From IMG/VR virus record IMGVR_UViG_2529292920_000017: a stretch of 27,135 nucleotides of DNA; one strand, 5' to 3'. The translations under genes were made by a program, and so were the position numbers. Under the pieces are notes generated by a model, which was not told where the DNA came from, did no database searches, and worked only from the letters and a program-made list of their open reading frames with translations. Below, piece by piece: positions 596-12,130 of the stretch. Numbering within the stretch: position 1 is the stretch's first letter; the number at the start of each line of letters is the position of its first letter. Source of the DNA: a virus (Duplodnaviria > Heunggongvirae > Uroviricota > Caudoviricetes).

Positions 596-1570
596 TTACC
601 CAGCAATAGGATTAAATCTCACCGCATCCTGCAAGTAATCCGGCGCAAGATGGGCATAAATCATCGTTGTCTGAATCTTTGCGTGCCCCAGAATTTTCTG
701 GAGCGTCAGAATATTGCCGCCGTTCATCATGAAATGACTGGCGAAGGTGTGGCGCAGCGCATGAACAGCCTGGCCGTCAGGAACATCAGGTGCGACCGTT
801 TTGATGACATCGCGAACCAATGGATAATCCAGCGTCGGAAACACCAGTTTCCCGCCCCGTTTTTTGATCTTTTCAAACAGGCTTTCAGAAATAGGAACGG
901 TACGGTTTTTGCTGTTCTTCGTTTTTGAAAAAGTGATTCGACAATGAAGAACACGGCGCTGCTCCAGTGCCGCTACCTCGCCCCATCGCGCCCCGGTCGA
1001 CAGAAGGATTTCGACAGCCAGCCGTTCATCGGGATTTTCAGCCAGTGCATCCAGCAACTGAACACATTCAGACTTACTCAGATATCCCATTTCGCGCTCG
1101 TTAACCTTCATTCCTTTAAGGCCTTGAACGGGGTTATCGTTAAGAAAATGGCCGGATGAGATGAGTGCGGTAAACATCGCGCTTAACGCCCCAATCTCTC
1201 GATTTATGGTGCTGGGCTGTATCCCCTGCTCTATCCTGGACACACGTAGCTCGGTGAGCATCGTTGTATTAAGTTTATGCACGCACGGGTCATCCATTGC
1301 CTCACTCAAGCGCAGCAATTTAAGGCGCGTGTTATGCCCTGACTTCATTAGCTGACCGTGGTATTTCCACCACAAGTCAATAAGCACTGACAGCGGACGG
1401 CGATCAATGGAGTTTCCTTTCCACTCATTGTTATGCTGTTGCGCCAGCACCCACCGCTCATATAAAACTGCATCCGATTTCGTTTTAAATTTTTTACGAA
1501 TGCGTTTGCCTTTACGCCCCTCCGGGCGCATGTCAAGAAGATATCCTCCCGGAATTGATTTTATGCTCAT
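596..1570 (-). CDS. int: tyrosine site-specific integrase, P2 Int-like
   Basis: ORF track 596..1720 minus; start reassigned to ATG at 1568-1570 (MSIKSIPGGYLLDMRPEGRKGKRIRKKF), which matches the N-terminus of P2-family integrases as remembered. C-terminal region carries the tyrosine recombinase signature (HALRHTFASHFMMNGGNILTLQKILGHAKIQTTMIYAHL, R...HxxR...Y). Lies next to the repressor as in P2. Confidence 0.9.
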   Translation of the reverse strand: MSIKSIPGGYLLDMRPEGRKGKRIRKKFKTKSDAVLYERWVLAQQHNNEWKGNSIDRRPLSVLIDLWWKYHGQLMKSGHNTRLKLLRLSEAMDDPCVHKLNTTMLTELRVSRIEQGIQPSTINREIGALSAMFTALISSGHFLNDNPVQGLKGMKVNEREMGYLSKSECVQLLDALAENPDERLAVEILLSTGARWGEVAALEQRRVLHCRITFSKTKNSKNRTVPISESLFEKIKKRGGKLVFPTLDYPLVRDVIKTVAPDVPDGQAVHALRHTFASHFMMNGGNILTLQKILGHAKIQTTMIYAHLAPDYLQDAVRFNPIAG

Positions 1571-1619
1571 TCGTGAAACCCCAGCGTTACAAGACCACCA
1601 TGCCCCCAGCGCTCCATGA

Positions 1620-1928
1620 TTAGCCGGGCTGTGTGCCAGTCTTGCGGGGTTTTTGAGAAGGCGATGTGCTTTTTGGCCCATCAGGGGAGAGAGACGGACT
1701 GATCTGCCCAGCAGCCTCATTTGTTTTTCCCGTCATAAGCCAATTCATGTACTTAAAAAAGCGAGGGTGATTAACAATCTTGATAAGCACTTCGCCCCCT
1801 ATGTTTTCAATCCGCCCCGTTTCATAACGACGCAAAGTGCCGATAGGCACATCAATCAGGCCGCAAAATTCTTCGCGCGTTAAATCCTCTGATTCACGAA
1901 TCACTCTAATTTTTTCACCGATAAGCAT
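1620..1928 (-). CDS. C: immunity repressor, P2 C-type (short HTH repressor)
   Basis: ORF track 1620..1964 minus (GTG at 1964). Start reassigned to ATG at 1926-1928 giving about 102 aa: MLIGEKIRVIRESEDLTREEFCGLIDVPIGTLRRYETGR... This parallels the P2 C repressor (ISEKIVLMRKSEYLSRQQLADLTGVPYGTLSYYESGR, recalled from memory) in sequence and size. Divergent from the rightward early operon. Confidence 0.8.
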   Translation of the reverse strand: MLIGEKIRVIRESEDLTREEFCGLIDVPIGTLRRYETGRIENIGGEVLIKIVNHPRFFKYMNWLMTGKTNEAAGQISPSLSPDGPKSTSPSQKPRKTGTQPG

Positions 1929-2024
1929 TGACAGTGTTCCTATAAGTACACTAAGCTTGCGCACAAGGTGTACTTATAAGTACACCAGGTCACAAACAAC
2001 CACAGATAGCGCAGGTTATCACAC
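1929..2024. promoter_or_regulatory. divergent early promoter/operator region between C and the cox-like gene
   Basis: Perfect 18-bp palindrome GTGTACTTATAAGTACAC at 1968-1985 plus a half-site copy TATAAGTACAC at 1941-1951; TTGACA at 1928-1933. Sits between divergently transcribed repressor and early operon, the position of Pe/Pc and operators in P2. Confidence 0.6.
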
Positions 2025-5232: not shown

Positions 5233-5622
5233 ATGATTGACGCTCATGACTTCACAAGATGGGTGCGCACACAGGACACCCGTCTGGCTCCCGTTCTTCA
5301 GGGATTATTTGATCTCTACATCCGTGGTCGTGACAACAGAGCACGCACCACAAAACCGGAAAATGCAGACACCCTTTATTTCACAGTAGACGACTGCTAC
5401 CGCGTGGACTTCACACCACACGGGCTGGCGTTGCATTGCCTGATACCACACGGAGAATCACTGCTGGCGTATTACGACTCCCCGGCCTCCGTATTTGCGG
5501 CAATGCTGGCGCATCGCACTGCTGGCGGGTGTGCCTCGCTGAGTGAATACACCGCTGAATTTAACCGCCTTTCTGCCCTCTTCTCGCAGGAGTGGCAGCG
5601 CGTGACGGGATACCAGCCATGA
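5233..5622 (+). CDS. hypothetical protein immediately upstream of the replication initiator (P2 gene B position)
   Basis: ATG at 5233; 129 aa; stop overlaps the gene A start (ATGA at 5619-5622). Positional analogy to P2 B only; no motif recognised. Confidence 0.5.
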   Translation: MIDAHDFTRWVRTQDTRLAPVLQGLFDLYIRGRDNRARTTKPENADTLYFTVDDCYRVDFTPHGLALHCLIPHGESLLAYYDSPASVFAAMLAHRTAGGCASLSEYTAEFNRLSALFSQEWQRVTGYQP

Positions 5623-8447
5623 GTGAGTTTGCATGGAGCTGGAATGAACCACGACCAGCCATTGATCCGGCCAGATTTACGGAGCACAGGCAGGAAACTG
5701 AAACCGACCTACAACGCGCCATCCGTTACTACCTTGAGGCAGACAAAAAGGCTCTGGAAGAACAGGAAGCGAAGGAGGAAGCCTTTTTCGCACAATCCAC
5801 CGTGGGTAAAAAACTCATGGCATCCCTTGAGGAAGCCGGACAGCGTGAAAAGCTGGCACAAAGCATCATCAGCAAGCGTCAGGCAACAGAACAAGACCCG
5901 GTGGCCCGTGCTTTTGCCACACTGAAGGTGCTTCCCGTTTATCTGCGTGAACCTCTGAGCCGCCACCTCTCTTTCCTGCGCAAAAAACAGGAAGCCGATC
6001 GCCAGAAAGGCAAAAAGAGCTGGCAGGCTGAACGCTACGCGCGCGGAACCCTGCGCAAAATATTCGAACGCCTGGACCGCACCGATCACCGCTGGCTGAC
6101 ACCGGGTTATCGCTCCCTTGCCGGACGCGAACGCCTGGACGATTTGCTTTACCTGCCGCAGCTCAACAAACACCAGATACAGACGCTGGCCACCATGACG
6201 GCGGCGATGTTCAGCAGCACCTTCGAAAAACTCTGCGATGGCTTTGGTGCGACTGATGGCGAACTGACCATGGATGTAACGCTGAAGGCGTATCAGATGC
6301 TGGCCCGCATGGCGTTACACCTGCACGCCATGCCTCCACATTATGACGCACTGACAACAGACAAAGACCGGAGGAACGAACCGGACACGGAGCTGCTGCC
6401 GGGCGCAATCCTTCGCCTGACCTGTGCGGAATGGTGGAAACGCAAACTGTGGCTGTTACGTTGCGAGTGGAGAGAAGAACAACTCCGCGCCGCCTGTCTG
6501 GTTTCCAGAAAAACATCACCCTATCTGAGCCAGGACGCGTTAAGCGAGTTTCGCGCACAGCGCGAGAAAACACGCGATTTCCTGAAAAGTTTCATGCTGG
6601 AAAACGAAGACGGGTTCACGATTGATCTCGAGACAGTGTATTACGCGGGAGTAAGTAACCCGGTTCACCGTAAGGCAGAAATGATGGCCACCATGAAGGG
6701 GCTGGAACTTCTGGCCGAAGCCCGTGGCGACAAAGCGGTGTTTCTGACTGTCACCTGCCCGTCAAAATACCACGCCACAACAGAGAACGGTCATCCGAAT
6801 CCCAAATGGAACGGGGCCACCATGCGCGACTCCAGCGATTACCTGGTTAACACGTTTTTTGCGGCGGTCCGCAAGAAACTGAACCGCGACGGCCTGCGCT
6901 GGTATGGCATCCGCACGGTGGAGCCTCACCATGACGGCACCGTGCACTGGCATATGATGGTCTTTGCTCATCCGGAAGAAATCGACACCATTGTGTCCCA
7001 CACCCGCGATATTGCCATTCAGGAAGACCGCCACGAGCTGGGCAATGATATTACTCCGCGCTTTAAGGTGGAGTATGTCGACGGCTCAAAAGGCACGCCA
7101 ACCAGCTACATCGCCACCTACATCGGAAAGAACCTGGACAGCCGCGCCGTGGATGGCATCGACCCGAAAACGGGCAAGCCACGCGTTGACCACGAAACCG
7201 GAAAATCAATGGCCGAGAGCGTGGAACGCGCCATCGGCTGGGCACGCCTTCACCGGGTCCGCCAGTTCCAGTTCTTTGGCATCCCCTCCCGTCAGGTATG
7301 GCGTGAACTCCGCCGCCTTGCCAGCCAGATGGCACGCAACCCGGAAGGCCCGCAACGGCTGAAGGATGATGCAATGGATGCGGTACTCGCTGCCGCTGAT
7401 GCCGGGTGTTTTGCCACCTACATTGAGAAACAGGGCGGCGTACTTGTTCCACGCAAAGACTACCTGATTCGCACCGCCTACGACCTCGCAGATGAGCTGA
7501 ACGATTACGGCGAACAGAGCGTACAGATTTACGGGATTTGGTCACCACTCATCGGGGAATCCTCCCGTGTGTGCACGCACCCGGATAACTGGAAGCTGGT
7601 AAGACGTAAACCGGAAGCGGAAGACAGCACCCGCGAAAATGGTTTTGACCTTCAGGGCGGCCCTGCCGCCCCTTGGACTCGTGGCAATAACTGTCCCCGT
7701 GTACAGGAAACGGACAACAACGGGACAGAACAGCCAGCACCGTGGTCGCAGCTCCCTGACGGCGTTGAAGTGAACGAATGGATGCGCTCACTGAAACGGC
7801 ACGAACGCCGGGCGCTGATGCGTTCGCTTCGTGACAAACAGGCAAAAAACAGCCGTGATGAAATGCAGAGCTGGACACAGAGCCGCAAACAGCAGCGGCC
7901 TTTGCCTGATAACCACGAACTACTCGCTAAAGAATGGCGGGAGTCTGCTGAATCTCTCGGCCTGCATATCGGTGAACAGCAGATGCAGCATCTGTTACGG
8001 GGCGGCAGTCTGTACGTTGACGGCAGCATCATTGCACCGCAGGGATTTGAAATTGTACGCAAACCGGATACCCGACCGGACAGCCGGATCACGCAGCTCT
8101 GGCAGCGCCTGAGCCGTAACCACGGCGTAAGCAGTACGGAGATCCGCCATAACCCGGTCGCCAGCTATCTGGAACAGCTGGGGACATCAGACCCCGAAGC
8201 CGCCGCACGCCTGGCATCCACACTTCAGCAAGACCAGAACACCATGAAAACACCCGTTACCGTGCTTTCTGACATGCTGCGCGCCATCCGCGACGCAGAG
8301 CACGCACAGAGAATCAGTGAAACCACTGAACGCGCCCGCCGCAAAGCAGACCTGCTGCGGGGTGGCCTGACCAGTGGAAACAAAAAACAGACAGAAACGG
8401 GATTCACAAATCCCGTAAATGAGCAAAAAACGCGCCGCGATATATGA
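5619..8447 (+). CDS. A: replication initiation protein, rolling-circle HUH endonuclease (P2 gene A family)
   Basis: ORF track 5592..8447 (GTG); start placed at ATG 5619 (MSEFAWSWNEP...). Contains HUH-type motif VHWHMMVF (around 6945-6968) and paired active-site tyrosines YIATYIGK (around 7105-7128), as in P2 A/phiX174 A-type initiators. About 942 aa, with a long low-complexity R/Q/E-rich C-terminal region. Confidence 0.85.
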   Translation: MSEFAWSWNEPRPAIDPARFTEHRQETETDLQRAIRYYLEADKKALEEQEAKEEAFFAQSTVGKKLMASLEEAGQREKLAQSIISKRQATEQDPVARAFATLKVLPVYLREPLSRHLSFLRKKQEADRQKGKKSWQAERYARGTLRKIFERLDRTDHRWLTPGYRSLAGRERLDDLLYLPQLNKHQIQTLATMTAAMFSSTFEKLCDGFGATDGELTMDVTLKAYQMLARMALHLHAMPPHYDALTTDKDRRNEPDTELLPGAILRLTCAEWWKRKLWLLRCEWREEQLRAACLVSRKTSPYLSQDALSEFRAQREKTRDFLKSFMLENEDGFTIDLETVYYAGVSNPVHRKAEMMATMKGLELLAEARGDKAVFLTVTCPSKYHATTENGHPNPKWNGATMRDSSDYLVNTFFAAVRKKLNRDGLRWYGIRTVEPHHDGTVHWHMMVFAHPEEIDTIVSHTRDIAIQEDRHELGNDITPRFKVEYVDGSKGTPTSYIATYIGKNLDSRAVDGIDPKTGKPRVDHETGKSMAESVERAIGWARLHRVRQFQFFGIPSRQVWRELRRLASQMARNPEGPQRLKDDAMDAVLAAADAGCFATYIEKQGGVLVPRKDYLIRTAYDLADELNDYGEQSVQIYGIWSPLIGESSRVCTHPDNWKLVRRKPEAEDSTRENGFDLQGGPAAPWTRGNNCPRVQETDNNGTEQPAPWSQLPDGVEVNEWMRSLKRHERRALMRSLRDKQAKNSRDEMQSWTQSRKQQRPLPDNHELLAKEWRESAESLGLHIGEQQMQHLLRGGSLYVDGSIIAPQGFEIVRKPDTRPDSRITQLWQRLSRNHGVSSTEIRHNPVASYLEQLGTSDPEAAARLASTLQQDQNTMKTPVTVLSDMLRAIRDAEHAQRISETTERARRKADLLRGGLTSGNKKQTETGFTNPVNEQKTRRDI

Positions 8448-8497
8448 AGCGCGCATAAAACAGGCAAAAACGGGATTTCAGAATCCCGTAAACGATT
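8385..8497. promoter_or_regulatory. parC-like centromere/operator candidate upstream of parM
   Basis: Two perfect 8-bp inverted repeats with 4-nt spacers: ACGGGATTcacaAATCCCGT at 8397-8416 and ACGGGATTtcagAATCCCGT at 8470-8489, each embedded in a longer direct repeat (AAACAGRCARAAACGGGATT...AATCCCGTAAA). Centres are about 73 bp apart. The first copy lies inside the 3' end of gene A, the second just upstream of the parM RBS. Confidence 0.5.
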
Positions 8498-8523
8498 AAT
8501 TAATCAACATAAGGAAAAGCGAC

Positions 8524-9483
8524 ATGAAAATTTGTATCGATGACGGCTCCACCAACATCAAGCTGGCATGGACTGAGAACGGCGAACGCCGCAACGCCAT
8601 CAGCCCGAACAGCTTCAAGTCGGAATGGTCTGCGCCGTTCGGTGGCACGCAGCCCGCGAACTACATGCTTGATGGCGTGCGCTATGGTTTTGATCCGGTC
8701 AGCGATCGCTTTGTCCAGACGACCGACACGCAATACCAGTACAGCGATGTGAATGTCATTGCCATTCATCACGCGCTGGTCAAATCAGGCATCACACCAC
8801 AGGAGGTGGATGTGGTTGTCACCCTGCCACTGAGCGAATATTTCGACACAAACGCACAGCCGGACATGGCCAACATCAACCGCAAAAAAGCAAACGTCAT
8901 GCGCCCGGTGGCGTACCAGAACGGAAAAGCATTCACTATCCGTAACGTACGGGTTATGCCTGAATCCATTCCGGCTGGTTTTAAAGCACTGGCTGACATG
9001 AGTCCGTTTGAATCCCTGCTGATTGTGGATTTAGGCGGAACCACGCTGGATGTGGCAAAGGTTCAGGGACAACTGGCAGGTATCAGCCAGGTGTTTTGCG
9101 ATCCACACGTAGGCGTTTCCCTGATGGCCGATGCCGTACTGTCGGTGATGGCCACTAACGGTATGCGTACCAGTCACCACATCGCCAATACCATTATCGA
9201 ACATCGCCATGATGAAGCCTGGCTGCGCCAGCACATCCACAATGACGCGCATTACGCCAGCCTGATGGCGGTTATTCGTGAAAAGGAAGAAACACTGAAA
9301 CAACGCGTGATCCGCGCGCTGGCGGGTTTTTCGGGTTACGGGCGGGTGATGGTTGTCGGTGGCGGGGCGGAGATTGTGGCACCCGCTATCCGCGAAGCCT
9401 GCGGAGTTAATGCGACTTTCATCGCGGACGGGGTGCCACAGTTTGCTCTGGTTAATGGGCTGTACGCAATGGACAAGGAGTAA
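8524..9483 (+). CDS. parM: actin-like segregation ATPase ParM/StbA
   Basis: ATG at 8524 with AAGGAAAAG upstream; 319 aa. N-terminus MKICIDDGSTNIKLAW and internal LLIVDLGGTTLDVA are the actin-fold phosphate-1 and phosphate-2 motifs. From memory the protein aligns along its length with plasmid R1 ParM (MLVFIDDGSTNIKLQW..., ...VMPESIPAG..., ...GGGAE...). Confidence 0.85.
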   Translation: MKICIDDGSTNIKLAWTENGERRNAISPNSFKSEWSAPFGGTQPANYMLDGVRYGFDPVSDRFVQTTDTQYQYSDVNVIAIHHALVKSGITPQEVDVVVTLPLSEYFDTNAQPDMANINRKKANVMRPVAYQNGKAFTIRNVRVMPESIPAGFKALADMSPFESLLIVDLGGTTLDVAKVQGQLAGISQVFCDPHVGVSLMADAVLSVMATNGMRTSHHIANTIIEHRHDEAWLRQHIHNDAHYASLMAVIREKEETLKQRVIRALAGFSGYGRVMVVGGGAEIVAPAIREACGVNATFIADGVPQFALVNGLYAMDKE

Positions 9484-9487
9484 ACCA

Positions 9488-9799
9488 ATGACGACACCAA
9501 CCAGACGAATAAGTTTCTATCTGAAGCCCGCCGCCGTCAAGAACGAAGGCGAAGCATGCGCCTGGCTGGACAGCCTTACACCAGAAGCCCGCAAAAGCGG
9601 CCAACGTGTGGCTTTTCTGGCCGGGCTGGCACTTCTGAAAATGAATCCGGCAGAGGCTTACCGACTGGCTGCATGGGCTGATGATGAAGCGTTATCAGTG
9701 ACACAAACCAGGACAGAACGCCCCGCATCACAGCCAGTATCAACCGCACAGATAACCAGTCAGATGGCCGGAAATATCCGGGCGTTATTTCCCGAATAA
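9488..9799 (+). CDS. parR: ParR-like centromere-binding protein (ribbon-helix-helix)
   Basis: ORF track 9353..9799; start placed at ATG 9488, 5 nt after the parM stop. 103 aa. RRISFYLKP, LDSLTPEARKSGQRVAFLAGLALL and the C-terminal NIRALFPE parallel R1 ParR (RRTIAFKLNP, LDSIPQGERSRLNRAALTAGLALY, NILRSLFPKE) as recalled from memory. Confidence 0.7.
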   Translation: MTTPTRRISFYLKPAAVKNEGEACAWLDSLTPEARKSGQRVAFLAGLALLKMNPAEAYRLAAWADDEALSVTQTRTERPASQPVSTAQITSQMAGNIRALFPE

Positions 9800-9862
9800 T
9801 ACAACATCAGGGCGCATCCGCCCTGATGACTTTAATCCGGGAACACAAACAAAGGGGACACA

Positions 9863-10234
9863 ATGCAACACATTGACAGAGAAAAAGCGCAGCGACTGAT
9901 TGAGCGGATGGAAGCGCTGGCGAAAGAAGAAAATGTCAACATCCAAAAAATAGCTGAATGTGGCCAGATAGTTCTTCGTCGTGAAAAAGACCTCAAACAA
10001 CTGATGTCTGGCGAAACCAGCAAAACATGGACTTCAGGCGAGAAGACGGTTTATTGCAGTTTCTGCAATAAATCCCAGTACGAAGTCACAAAGGTGATTG
10101 CCGGACCGTCTGTTTACATCTGCAATGAATGCGTGGATTTGTGCAATGAAATTATCAGGAAAGAAGTGACAGACAAAAAGGAAAAAACGCATGAACAGAA
10201 AACAGAAACAAGAGTTGAAATACTTCTTACGTAA
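9863..10234 (+). CDS. stand-alone ClpX-type C4 zinc-finger protein
   Basis: ATG at 9863 with AAAGGGGA upstream; 123 aa. C-terminal [38 protein letters not shown] is near-identical in pattern to the ClpX N-terminal zinc-binding domain ([38 protein letters not shown], from memory). There is no AAA+ module. N-terminal 60 aa is a charged, probably helical region. AT-rich gene. Confidence 0.75.
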
Positions 10235-10598
10235 AGAAATTGCCAGGCTTGAAGATGCAGAGTCACAATCATCAGAAATTCCGTTCGGAATGGATATCAA
10301 CGACGCCCGTATGCTTCAGGCATACCGTATAGCTCAGGCTGCACTACAGACAAAACCGTTAAATAACATACATGAAAAGTATGATTATTTTACGGATACC
10401 GCTTGCTTGCTGACATCAGAAGAACAAAAGATAGCCCAACTTTTAGGCGACGCATGGAACCTGTATTTAACATTGCCAGTTGAGCATCCAATGGGTAGAG
10501 ATGAATTTTGCCGGGCAATTCATCATTGCCAAAATATGGTGTTGGCACGCCCGGCCATCAGGGCGTTGGCCAGGAAGGGGCAAGGCTATAAAAGATAA
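10191..10598 (+). CDS. hypothetical protein (135 aa), overlaps the zinc-finger gene by 44 nt in another frame
   Basis: ATG at 10191 with AAAGGA about 9 nt upstream; AT-rich. The last gene before a terminator hairpin. No motif recognised. Confidence 0.5.
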
Positions 10599-10602
10599 GT
10601 AA

Positions 10603-10629
10603 AACGCCCTCCTCCAGGGCGTTTATTTC
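10603..10629 (+). terminator. Rho-independent terminator candidate
   Basis: AACGCCCT-cctcc-AGGGCGTT hairpin followed by TTATTTC, 5 nt after the stop of the 10191..10598 gene. Confidence 0.6.
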
Positions 10630-10631
10630 AA

Positions 10632-10658
10632 TGCACAATAGTGCACAAATTTGCACAA
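10632..10658. repeat. three TGCACAA direct repeats phased at exactly 10 bp
   Basis: TGCACAA at 10632-10638, 10642-10648 and 10652-10658; a fourth copy at 10724-10730. Nearby, GGATCCGT is directly repeated at 10702-10709 and 10713-10720. All lie in the non-coding region between the early/accessory genes and the portal gene. Confidence 0.6.
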
Positions 10659-10753
10659 TTTTTTTGAACGACTTTTTACCCTTCCGGCCCGCATGGCGGC
10701 TGGATCCGTCAAGGATCCGTGCGTGCACAAAAAAACGCGCTTTTTCTGCGCGC

Positions 10754-10772
10754 AGGTGACGGGGGAACAGCC
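10754..10772. other. candidate cos cohesive-end core
   Basis: The G-rich 19-mer GGTGACGGGGGAACAGCCC matches 13 of 19 positions of the P2 cohesive end as I remember it (GGCGAGGCGGGGAAAGCAC). It sits in the expected place, between the 3' end of portal gene Q and the accessory genes. My recollection of the P2 sequence is the weak link. Confidence 0.35.
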
Positions 10773-11083
10773 CGCGTTTCAGGGGGTAAATAGCATCCCC
10801 TGAACGATGTCGCAGCAACACAACAGAATGGCTGTATTTCTCACGCTGAGTGTGAAAAAGACGTGAGGGATTCTGATTTGATGGGGTGAAAGGTAAGGCC
10901 GTCAAAATCGCACTGAGGCGTCGAAGAACATGCAGTCAACGCGGTGGGATTGCGTAAGAGTCTGACCGTCGATGATGGCAATAAGCAGGAAAGCGTCGTG
11001 AAATTATCTGACTGATACAGGAGCTGGAGAGTCGGGGCATAAATTTTTTATGCCCCGGCGAAGCAGCAGACAAGCGAAGCGCG

Positions 11084-12130
11084 TCAGGATGTGGGCTGGA
11101 TGTCTAACAGTGCGTAAGGGTTAAAGCGGATCACCTCTTCGCCAAGCCAGTCATTGATGTGCTTCATGGCCTCCATGACGGGCATCAGCTCGTTAATTGC
11201 GTAAACCCGCGCGGCCTTCTCCACATCACCAAACGCACTTTTTTCACCCGGCATCGCCCCCATCAGTTGCGGCGGAACGCGGTGCGCAGCCAGCACATCA
11301 TCACGGGATGCCGCCTTAACATTCATGAACTCATCCTTTGCGGTGATCTGCTGGAACGGCAAAATTTGCACCCCCTCTTTGCCCCCGTTGGGCGCATGAA
11401 TGAGCACGTTTTTAAACGCACCACCACCACGCGCACCCTGTAGCGTTTCTTTCAGGGAGTCCATGCTTTCGCGGTTTACCTGCGCTGCACCGATGTAGAT
11501 GATGCACCCGGCGTGGGATCCGTTGTCGTAATACAGTTTTCTGAACATGTCCGCCGAATGAGACAGGCTGGCCGAGAGTAATGCGCCGAGATATTCCGGC
11601 ATGCCGTAGATTTCCTGGTTAATGTCAGGATTCATCAGGTGACACACTTTGCCTGGGCGAAACTGAAACGCATCCTTGCCATCCTGCACATACCACCATG
11701 ATTCAAGATCGCTTCCGCGTCGCATGTATTTCGCCAGTGCGTGCCGTAATTTAAGCGGTTCGCCGAGCATATTGCTTCGAAGCTCAAGGAATGCGTTACC
11801 GAACACAAACCAGTCCAGCGCCAGCGCCGAGAAATCCTGCCGGGAAAGCAGCGGGTGCGGGATGTAGCAACCGAGCAATACATTGCGCTTAAAGTAAAGC
11901 GCAGACTGATGCCAGGACGTTTGCCGGGCAGCTCTTGCCAGACCGTACCAGTCCACCGGGGTTTCATACCACCGCCCGTTATCAGCACAGTACATATTGT
12001 CCAGCAGGTCATGCCCGGTCAGGCGATAAGGACCATCAAATGTGAATGCACTGAGCGATGATTCTTTCCTGAGCGCATCAGCGAGATCAATGCGTGAACT
12101 CATGCGCACTTTTTTATTTTTTCTGCTCAT
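11084..12130 (-). CDS. Q: portal protein (P2 gpQ family)
   Basis: 348 aa, ATG at 12128-12130 overlapping the terminase stop (ATGA). Size and position match P2 Q: downstream of the large terminase on the leftward late operon next to cos. Confidence 0.85.
   Translation of the reverse strand: MSRKNKKVRMSSRIDLADALRKESSLSAFTFDGPYRLTGHDLLDNMYCADNGRWYETPVDWYGLARAARQTSWHQSALYFKRNVLLGCYIPHPLLSRQDFSALALDWFVFGNAFLELRSNMLGEPLKLRHALAKYMRRGSDLESWWYVQDGKDAFQFRPGKVCHLMNPDINQEIYGMPEYLGALLSASLSHSADMFRKLYYDNGSHAGCIIYIGAAQVNRESMDSLKETLQGARGGGAFKNVLIHAPNGGKEGVQILPFQQITAKDEFMNVKAASRDDVLAAHRVPPQLMGAMPGEKSAFGDVEKAARVYAINELMPVMEAMKHINDWLGEEVIRFNPYALLDIQPTS

Follow-up and report, generated by a model that had tools for sequence, protein, structure and literature searches.

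The window analysed here, the whole stretch of 27,135 nucleotides (nt) recorded as IMGVR_UViG_2529292920_000017, is a P2-like prophage (Peduoviridae, Xuanwuvirus/P88-like) of E. coli, and it carries at 9863-10234 a small gene whose product, hereafter the ZnF protein, contains a stand-alone copy of the C4 zinc-binding domain (ZBD) found at the N-terminus of the unfoldase ClpX. Judged from its sequence, the domain is a bona fide member of the PF06689 family, and the protein is not a ClpX. We propose that it would serve as a free, trans-acting copy of the ClpX domain that docks substrates and adaptors, flexibly tethered to a hairpin specific to its own family. The gene and the parts of its product are as follows.

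9863-10234, plus strand: ZnF open reading frame (ORF), 123 amino acids (aa) and a stop codon; the minority A6 allele
9863-10012, plus strand: predicted two-helix hairpin domain, aa 1-50 (helices at 6-22 and 27-48), AlphaFold2 (AF2) predicted local distance difference test score (pLDDT) 87-95
10013-10048, plus strand: flexible linker, aa 51-62, with pLDDT <50 at residues 52-59 and family indels of up to ~20 extra residues
10049-10168, plus strand: C4 ZBD, aa 63-102, with predicted zinc ligands C65, C68, C87 and C90 and pocket residues F67 and I97
10169-10231, plus strand: charged tail, aa 103-123, of which residues 109-123 are frameshift read-through into the next gene
10182-10187, plus strand: A6 homopolymer, A7 in the nearest relatives; the 1-nt difference abolishes an ATGA stop/start overlap

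Pfam PF06689 (zf-C4_ClpX) matched aa 64-99 through profile positions 2-38 of 39, scoring 64.4 bits (cut-off 27; E=8.6e-18), and no other Pfam family matched the ZnF protein. A phmmer search of all PDB chains returned 1OVX (E=7e-20) and 2DS5 (E=3.5e-19), both of which are the E. coli ClpX ZBD. Residues Y64-V102 are identical to E. coli ClpX Y14-I52 at 31 of 39 positions (79%), with C65, C68, C87 and C90 aligned to ClpX C15, C18, C37 and C40 in a CxxC-x18-CxxC arrangement of equal 2/18/2 spacing, and the four cysteines are invariant in 13 family members as well as in 115 ZBD sequences. The AAA+ module is absent: the clpX profile TIGR00382 (TIGR00382/NF003745 equivalog) gave 54.1 bits against a cut-off of 370.75 and aligned through profile positions 6-60 only. 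An earlier sequence-only reading of this DNA had described a stand-alone ClpX-type C4 domain with the ATPase missing, and both halves of that description stand.

The AF2 model used here was built from an alignment of 115 sequences; an earlier model from 12 sequences had a poor ZBD (pLDDT 57-69) and gave uninformative Foldseek results. In the model used, the ZBD has a pLDDT of 83-92 and superposes on crystal structures 2DS5, 2DS6, 2DS7 and 2DS8 with a root-mean-square deviation of 0.6-1.1 Å and a target-normalised template modelling (TM) score of 0.87-0.91. This is the comparison with the ClpX N-domain that the sequence-only reading had named as a check, and the predicted fold agrees with it. 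In the alignment the ZnF protein retains all the hydrophobic residues of the ClpX ZBD, in the core and on the surface alike, and from these positions we infer that it binds zinc and dimerises.

The residues that contact ligands in ClpX are kept in part. The ClpX pocket formed by F16 and I46 overlaps the lambda O site and is used too by TF, SspB and RssB (PMC7804408); it is preserved in the ZnF protein, where F67 is invariant and I97 is I or V across the family. ClpX L12, L13 and H23 serve in recognition of the MqsA degron, and H23 also in that of the SspB tail (PMC8808172). Here L13 corresponds to V63, while L12 and H23 are replaced by T62 and Y73, both at positions that vary within the family, and ClpX R26 and D38 are replaced by T and N. 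With L12 and H23 changed, the range of ligands is probably shifted relative to that of ClpX.

The N-terminal part of the protein had been read as a 60-aa charged region with the ZBD at the C-terminus. The ZBD does lie in the C-terminal part, but 21 more residues follow it in the window, and the first 50 aa form a conserved predicted hairpin, in which E17, E23 and R40 are conserved across the family. When a hairpin profile was searched against 1.84 billion representative proteins, only 17 entries were recovered, and apart from two exceptions they are hairpin-plus-ZBD proteins, whose complete forms have 105-129 aa, or pieces of such proteins; the two exceptions are long proteins matched in multiple stretches and are taken as spurious. 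By this search the hairpin is private to the family and always precedes a ZBD. The same profile gave only chance matches to PDB sequences (E>=0.2), and Foldseek searches of the whole model against PDB and BFVD found matches through the ZBD alone, so that the hairpin is without a recognisable relative. AF2 did not place the two domains relative to each other with confidence (predicted TM score, pTM, 0.39).

In ClpX, lambda O, MuA, UmuD', FtsZ and the MqsA degron all dock on the N-domain, as do the adaptors SspB and RssB (PMC8808172, PMC5415555). Once its ZBD is removed, ClpX can degrade ssrA-tagged proteins but neither sigmaS nor lambda O (PMC7226468, PMC7804408), and purified ClpX ZBD supplied in trans at 5-20 µM inhibits the RssB-dependent degradation of sigmaS by ClpXP (PMC7226468, Fig. 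1d). Given this in-vitro precedent and the preserved F16/I46 pocket, the simplest model is that of a competitive decoy, a free N-domain that would compete with ClpX for N-domain-dependent substrates and adaptors. By analogy with the isolated domain we consider this quite possible and prefer it tentatively.

In such a mechanism the ZBD would probably fold on one zinc ion and dimerise, as the isolated ClpX ZBD does, and the dimer would present a ClpX-like hydrophobic docking pocket. With no ATPase attached, bound ligands would be kept from the unfoldase. Candidate ligands would be substrates of the lambda O, MuA, UmuD', FtsZ or MqsA type and the adaptors RssB and SspB. The predicted outcome is that N-domain-dependent proteolysis and remodelling by ClpXP would be selectively damped, while pore-recognised (ssrA-type) substrates would be spared. 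The hairpin might add avidity through oligomerisation, or might bind a specific phage or host partner. It had also been suggested that a free copy could poison ClpX hexamers; this is unlikely, because ClpX lacking the ZBD forms active hexamers (PMC7226468, PMC8808172) and the ZnF protein has nothing able to enter the ring.

Several points weigh against a decoy. The T62 and Y73 changes may leave the binding of SspB-type ligands weak or altered, and with L12 and H23 replaced the protein would not be a perfect SspB decoy. In vitro, the inhibitory effect required about a 10-30-fold excess of ZBD over ClpX (PMC7226468). A pure decoy could do without the conserved hairpin, whose presence speaks for a further or different activity. 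Assemblies often carry truncated and frameshifted alleles, so the gene is dispensable for prophage carriage. Finally, we found in the literature no functional study of any free or phage ZBD, including the ZnF protein and its relatives.

The hairpin is central to a second explanation, in which the protein would be a gain-of-function adaptor that mimics a ClpX subunit. In this case the hairpin would bind a phage or host protein, the ZBD would heterodimerise with the ClpX N-domain or capture ZBD-binding adaptors, and the partner would thereby be handed over to ClpX, to be degraded or remodelled instead of protected. The two-module layout, with a flexible linker of variable length in between, recalls tethering adaptors, a conserved and family-exclusive hairpin suggests a dedicated partner, and the retention of all hydrophobic residues of the ClpX ZBD means that the dimer interface is probably kept. 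However, the ClpX ZBD has been described as constitutively dimeric (PMC7226468, PMC7804408), so that its subunits may be slow to exchange with a free ZBD; no gene conserved across lineages emerged as a candidate partner, and AF2 arranged the two domains without confidence. We regard such an adaptor as unlikely, though credible. A related scheme, a specificity swap, is distinctly improbable: here the ZBD would pair with the ClpX N-domain and graft the phage hairpin onto the host unfoldase, retargeting or shielding particular proteins through which the phage replicates or maintains itself, such as those of the ParMR/plasmid-prophage state. If it were true, it would be the first natural reprogramming of a protease by mimicry of the protease's own docking domain.

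The ZnF protein belongs to a family that was already named and catalogued in databases. It matches PHROG 6797, whose function is listed as unknown, with E=3e-58 over aa 1-106, and its orthologues include P88 gp19 and WP_065275731.1. RefSeq and NCBI use the name 'ClpX C4-type zinc finger protein', and older records are mislabelled "carboxylate--amine ligase". The whole family architecture is present in the window, namely a two-helix N-domain, a linker and a C-terminal ZBD, in proteins of 105-129 aa. The family is confined to temperate enterobacterial phages, that is, P2/P88-like prophages (in E. coli, E. albertii and Salmonella), P1-like phages (D6) and ~110-kb phage-plasmids (the ~108-kb PhiR41_1 and CMS-2020a); a full-length homologue occurs on 94 non-mobilizable enterobacterial plasmids of 75-120 kb.

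In the window, the gene lies between replication gene A (gpA) and portal gene Q (gpQ), which is the published P2 hotspot (bioRxiv 10.1101/2021.01.21.427644), and 8400-11100 of the window is 97% identical to Escherichia phage P88. A search of the whole window for the P2 cos consensus, intended to position the hotspot, gave no match. The features of the surrounding locus are these.

596-1720, minus strand: integrase
1620-1964, minus strand: helix-turn-helix (HTH) repressor-like ORF
5592-8447, plus strand: replication gene A (gpA), which closes the rightward block
8524-9483, plus strand: parM (Pfam StbA_N/ParM_N, E=7e-82)
9488-9799, plus strand: parR/StbB-like gene (Pfam Plasmid_stab_B, E=4e-24)
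9805-9828, plus strand: 10-bp perfect DNA hairpin CATCAGGGCG-N4-CGCCCTGATG, just past the parR stop and within the 63-nt spacer 5' of the ZnF gene
9853-9858, plus strand: Shine-Dalgarno-like AGGGGA, 4 nt 5' of the ZnF ATG, read from sequence
10191-10598, plus strand: downstream ORF, 135 aa
10602-10624: terminator-like DNA hairpin AAACGCCC...GGGCGTTT followed by TATTT, the end of the rightward unit
10641-10656: second terminator-like DNA hairpin
after these hairpins, leftward: portal Q and terminase P genes

The ZnF gene is co-oriented with the early and replication genes and is penultimate in the rightward gpA-parM-parR unit, which terminates at 10602-10656. No sigma70-like promoter specific to the ZnF gene was detected, and no plus-strand terminator was found between parR and the ZnF gene; the DNA hairpin at 9805-9828 has no T-run on the plus strand and is therefore a weak attenuator at most. 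From its penultimate place, the protein is probably made alongside the replication and partition genes, and in the proposed mechanism the beneficiary would most likely be a phage early or maintenance protein.

We surveyed the neighbourhood of the gene in 80 IMG/VR loci. All 35 close relatives have the order gpA-parM-parR-ZnF with constant spacing, and divergent alleles (36-50% identity) occupy the same slot behind parR in four further loci. At 25 phage-plasmid loci the ZnF gene lies among ea22-type accessory genes, usually with a gene for a 176-aa protein after it. It occurs without parMR in five P2-like loci (L054, L055, L083, L094 and L098) and in Salmonella prophages, and conversely parMR occurs without it in Shae_phiSM, Chuche, 520873 and 503458. 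The 3' neighbour varies among a P88 gp20/135-aa type, a 174-aa protein, nothing recognisable, and a convergent ogr-like gene. A comparison of the proteins encoded on either side of diverged homologues, made to find an obligate partner gene, revealed none common to the lineages. The ZnF protein is thus an autonomous unit with lineage-specific neighbours, always in the orientation of the replication and early genes. Viral-contig matches to the ZBD only (L086-L097) are mostly full-length clpX and could not be used for neighbourhood statistics.

In the four loci with divergent alleles (L081, L082, L084 and L085) the ZnF gene lies at about 5001 and the ParR-like protein is 40-84% identical to the window ParR. 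In L081, L082 and L085, ParM is 97-99% identical and gpA, in those that extend far enough to include it, 96-97% identical. The pattern looks like allelic replacement at a fixed junction.

These neighbourhoods bear on the idea that the protein is a plasmid-type maintenance accessory, which would work with ParM/ParR or in an extrachromosomal prophage state and would use the ZBD fold for a contact unrelated to ClpXP clients. The position directly after parM-parR in 35 close and four divergent viral loci, with spacing constant in the 35, is what one would expect of such an accessory, as are the occupation of one slot by alleles only 36-50% identical, the run from parR to the ZnF gene uninterrupted by a plus-strand terminator, and the fact that the other carriers are mostly phage-plasmids (the 94 plasmids, D6 and PhiR41_1). 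Yet the two elements also occur apart, parMR without the ZnF gene in the four cases named above and the ZnF gene without parMR in Salmonella and other P2-like prophages; in phage-plasmids the gene sits away from the partition genes; and the ClpX ligand-pocket residues are conserved in addition to the fold. We find a maintenance role rather unlikely. If there were one, it would link partition systems to regulated proteolysis.

Three further features of the locus can be recorded here. A complete ParM/ParR actin-type partition cassette (8524-9799) resides in the gpA-gpQ hotspot of this integrase-bearing P2-like prophage; Rousset et al. noted such cassettes in the hotspot and proposed plasmid-like maintenance (10.1101/2021.01.21.427644). 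A 42-nt direct repeat (8381-8422 and 8454-8495, 81% identical) has the palindrome ACGGGATT-N4-AATCCCGT in both copies, which flank the gpA stop codon just 5' of parM, and could be a parC/ParR-binding site or a par promoter-operator. An 11-bp perfect DNA hairpin, CGGGGCATAAA-TTT-TTTATGCCCCG at 11033-11057, lies between the hotspot and the portal gene, is kept in P88 and is probably a bidirectional terminator.

At its 3' end the window carries an unusual allele. The A-run at 10182-10187 is 1 nt shorter than in P88, PhiR44_2 and a 99.7%-identical prophage of E. coli GB089. The usual product has 110-111 aa; the 110-aa form ends in ...KKEKNA with an ATGA overlap onto the next gene, and 111-aa forms exist with a different tail. 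In the window the frame shifts past residue 108, which adds 15 codons inside the next gene and gives an overlap of 44 nt with the downstream ORF compared to 4 nt in relatives. A sequencing error was considered as the source of the 123-aa length and rejected: the exact 123-aa protein recurs on eight public contigs, against 88 for one 110-aa form, and is a minority frameshift allele. The tail is variable and probably of low importance.

Disrupted public alleles are numerous (P0010, P0012, P0014, P0017, P0137 and P0141). They include a 199-aa in-frame ParM-ZnF deletion fusion, a 70-aa internal deletion, frameshifts, and truncations to 63-96 aa, and the gene is often lost or damaged in resident prophages.

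The downstream ORF is a frequent but not obligate neighbour in P88-like phages, and its 135-aa product is a mosaic: aa 1-60 are 92% identical to P88 gp20 and to the PhiR44_2 homologue, and the C-terminal half, which bears no relation to those of the two homologues, matches the 67-aa profile PHROG 13916, whose label is 'DNA ligase'. More than 1000 public contigs encode the identical 135-aa protein, and its sequence was matched also in genomes with no megablast match to most of the ZnF gene.

The sequence-only reading had noted that the gene is AT-rich and lies in an accessory hotspot, which our analysis bears out (GC content 41.7% compared to 52.9% for the window), and had offered a defence or counter-defence component as an alternative. 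In one form of this idea a lysogen would express the protein as a decoy against phages that need the ClpX N-domain (Mu-type transposition, lambda O turnover); in another it would form a two-gene system with the downstream ORF. The gpA-gpQ hotspot houses old and tin in P2 as well as numerous defence systems whose activity has been validated (10.1101/2021.01.21.427644), the low GC of the gene fits such cargo, P88-like phages usually couple ZnF translationally to a downstream gene whose N-terminus is conserved and whose C-terminus is swappable, and some defence systems release a toxin in a ClpP-dependent manner, for example CmdTAC (PMC11618068). Nevertheless, the CmdA degron is of the LAA type and is recognised by ClpX without the N-domain, the hotspot also accommodates cargo unrelated to defence, partition systems among them (Rousset et al.), and the gene is co-oriented with early lytic genes and shows no sigma70-like promoter of its own. 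When ParM, ParR, the ZnF protein and the product of the downstream ORF were scanned with PADLOC-DB 2.0, the ZnF protein had no match at E<=1, and the only match, a marginal one of the downstream ORF to RT_UG36 (E=0.019), is one that we regard as chance. Salmonella, D6 and several E. coli loci either lack the downstream gene or have a different one, and we saw no conserved multi-gene defence module around ZnF, as downstream genes differ by lineage. With no partner common to the lineages, a two-gene toxin-antitoxin or defence system is demoted. Taken together, the lack of a PADLOC match, the lack of a universal partner and the orientation leave the suggestion with no positive evidence, and we judge exclusion or defence improbable.

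The frameshifted, truncated and fused alleles, the window allele among them, also raise the question of whether the gene is a decaying, functionless fragment of a captured clpX. The domain has been under constraint: the ratio of nonsynonymous to synonymous substitution rates (dN/dS) of the ZBD is 0.13-0.33 in comparisons with family members, synonymous divergence being saturated, and we conclude from these values that selection maintains the ClpX-like ZBD sequence. Moreover, the architecture is kept at 36-52% identity over P2-like, P1-like and ~110-kb phage-plasmid lineages, and a private N-terminal domain has been acquired. A mere remnant is highly improbable.

We likewise considered, and reject, that the domain was recently captured from host clpX or has undergone gene conversion with it. 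In a comparison with E. coli clpX, 69% of nucleotides match, as do 48% of third positions in codons for identical residues, and the proportion of synonymous differences (pS) is 0.84. A sensitive ('distant') blastn search with the gene matched 176 of 5426 complete E. coli genomes (~3%), including the uropathogenic strain UTI89; from this count it follows that clpX, which is present in all of them, was not detected. Between the window and another E. coli P2-like prophage (L008), pS is 0.30 in the ZBD and 0.76 in the hairpin, a contrast that suggests intragenic recombination among family alleles.

ClpXP sets the fate of many phage and plasmid proteins, among them lambda O, MuA, Phd, UmuD', antitoxins and sigmaS, and the ClpX N-domain is the hub that docks adaptors and a subset of substrates. 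If the ZnF protein is a natural, selected free copy of this hub, it would represent a new viral means of tuning host proteolysis, present in ~3% of complete E. coli genomes and about 90 phage-plasmids, and would provide research with a ready-made inhibitor selective for one branch of ClpXP activity. The altered L12 and H23 positions could also reveal how N-domain specificity is encoded.

Compared to the E. coli ClpX ZBD, the ZnF ZBD has the same C4 treble-clef fold (predicted here), cysteine spacing and F16/I46 pocket, and 79% identity over 39 residues; it differs in being detached from the AAA+ ATPase, in its C-terminal position behind a hairpin and linker, and in the T, Y, T and N that replace L12, H23, R26 and D38. 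The recombinant isolated ClpX ZBD (PMC7226468; Wojtyra et al. 2003, cited in PMC7804408) is a free dimer without ATPase that inhibits N-domain-dependent degradation in trans, which is the mechanism proposed for the ZnF protein. It is a laboratory construct, whereas the ZnF gene is natural and under selection, and its product has an extra domain and a proposed activity.

The nearest functional analogues would be anti-adaptors and phage protease inhibitors. Phages encode several inhibitors of AAA+ proteases, such as T4 PinA and T7 Gp4.5, which act against Lon, and SPO1 Gp53, which acts on ClpC. Like these inhibitors, the anti-adaptors IraD, IraP and IraM are small proteins that reprogram a host AAA+ protease by blocking substrate delivery rather than catalysis, as the ZnF protein would. 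Neither they nor the phage inhibitors are related to it in sequence or fold, and they bind the adaptor or the protease, whereas the ZnF protein would imitate the docking domain. With the cargo of the P2 hotspot (old, tin, retrons, PARIS and others; Rousset et al. preprint) the gene shares the gpA-gpQ locus, low GC and high turnover, but it encodes a single small protein with no defence domain or PADLOC match, and it points in the same direction as the early operon.

ClpX-type ZBDs are also found in other arrangements. An IMG/VR contig (L095:2400-3311) encodes a 303-aa protein whose N-terminus looks ParB-like by eye and whose ZBD match is C-terminal, a different fusion architecture. Two 136-aa proteins of metagenomic/genomic origin (P0050 and P0093) have an N-terminal ZBD and a C-terminal segment of HTH-like appearance (…GVSWARIGEALGMTRQSAWERF) and are unrelated to the phage family. 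In the lambdoid Klebsiella phage ST846-OXA48phi9.2, an unannotated 73-aa ZBD ORF (L016:3001-3222) lies between cII and the replication-initiator gene, where the record has a 51-aa ORF on the opposite strand instead.

Other phages do have stand-alone ClpX-type ZBDs in their early or replication regions (PHROG 12435 and 5259), as in Pseudomonas PP9W2 (gp081, 65 aa, a free ZBD after primosomal/DnaB genes), Pseudomonas Alize, the Klebsiella ST846-OXA48phi9.2 ORF and Caulobacter Cr30. Unlike the ZnF protein, these lack the N-terminal hairpin and are either ZBD-only (65-73 aa) or, in Alize, carry an N-terminal ZBD. Free ZBDs near replication genes have thus been acquired independently by unrelated phages, and detachment of the ZBD is a recurrent viral theme.

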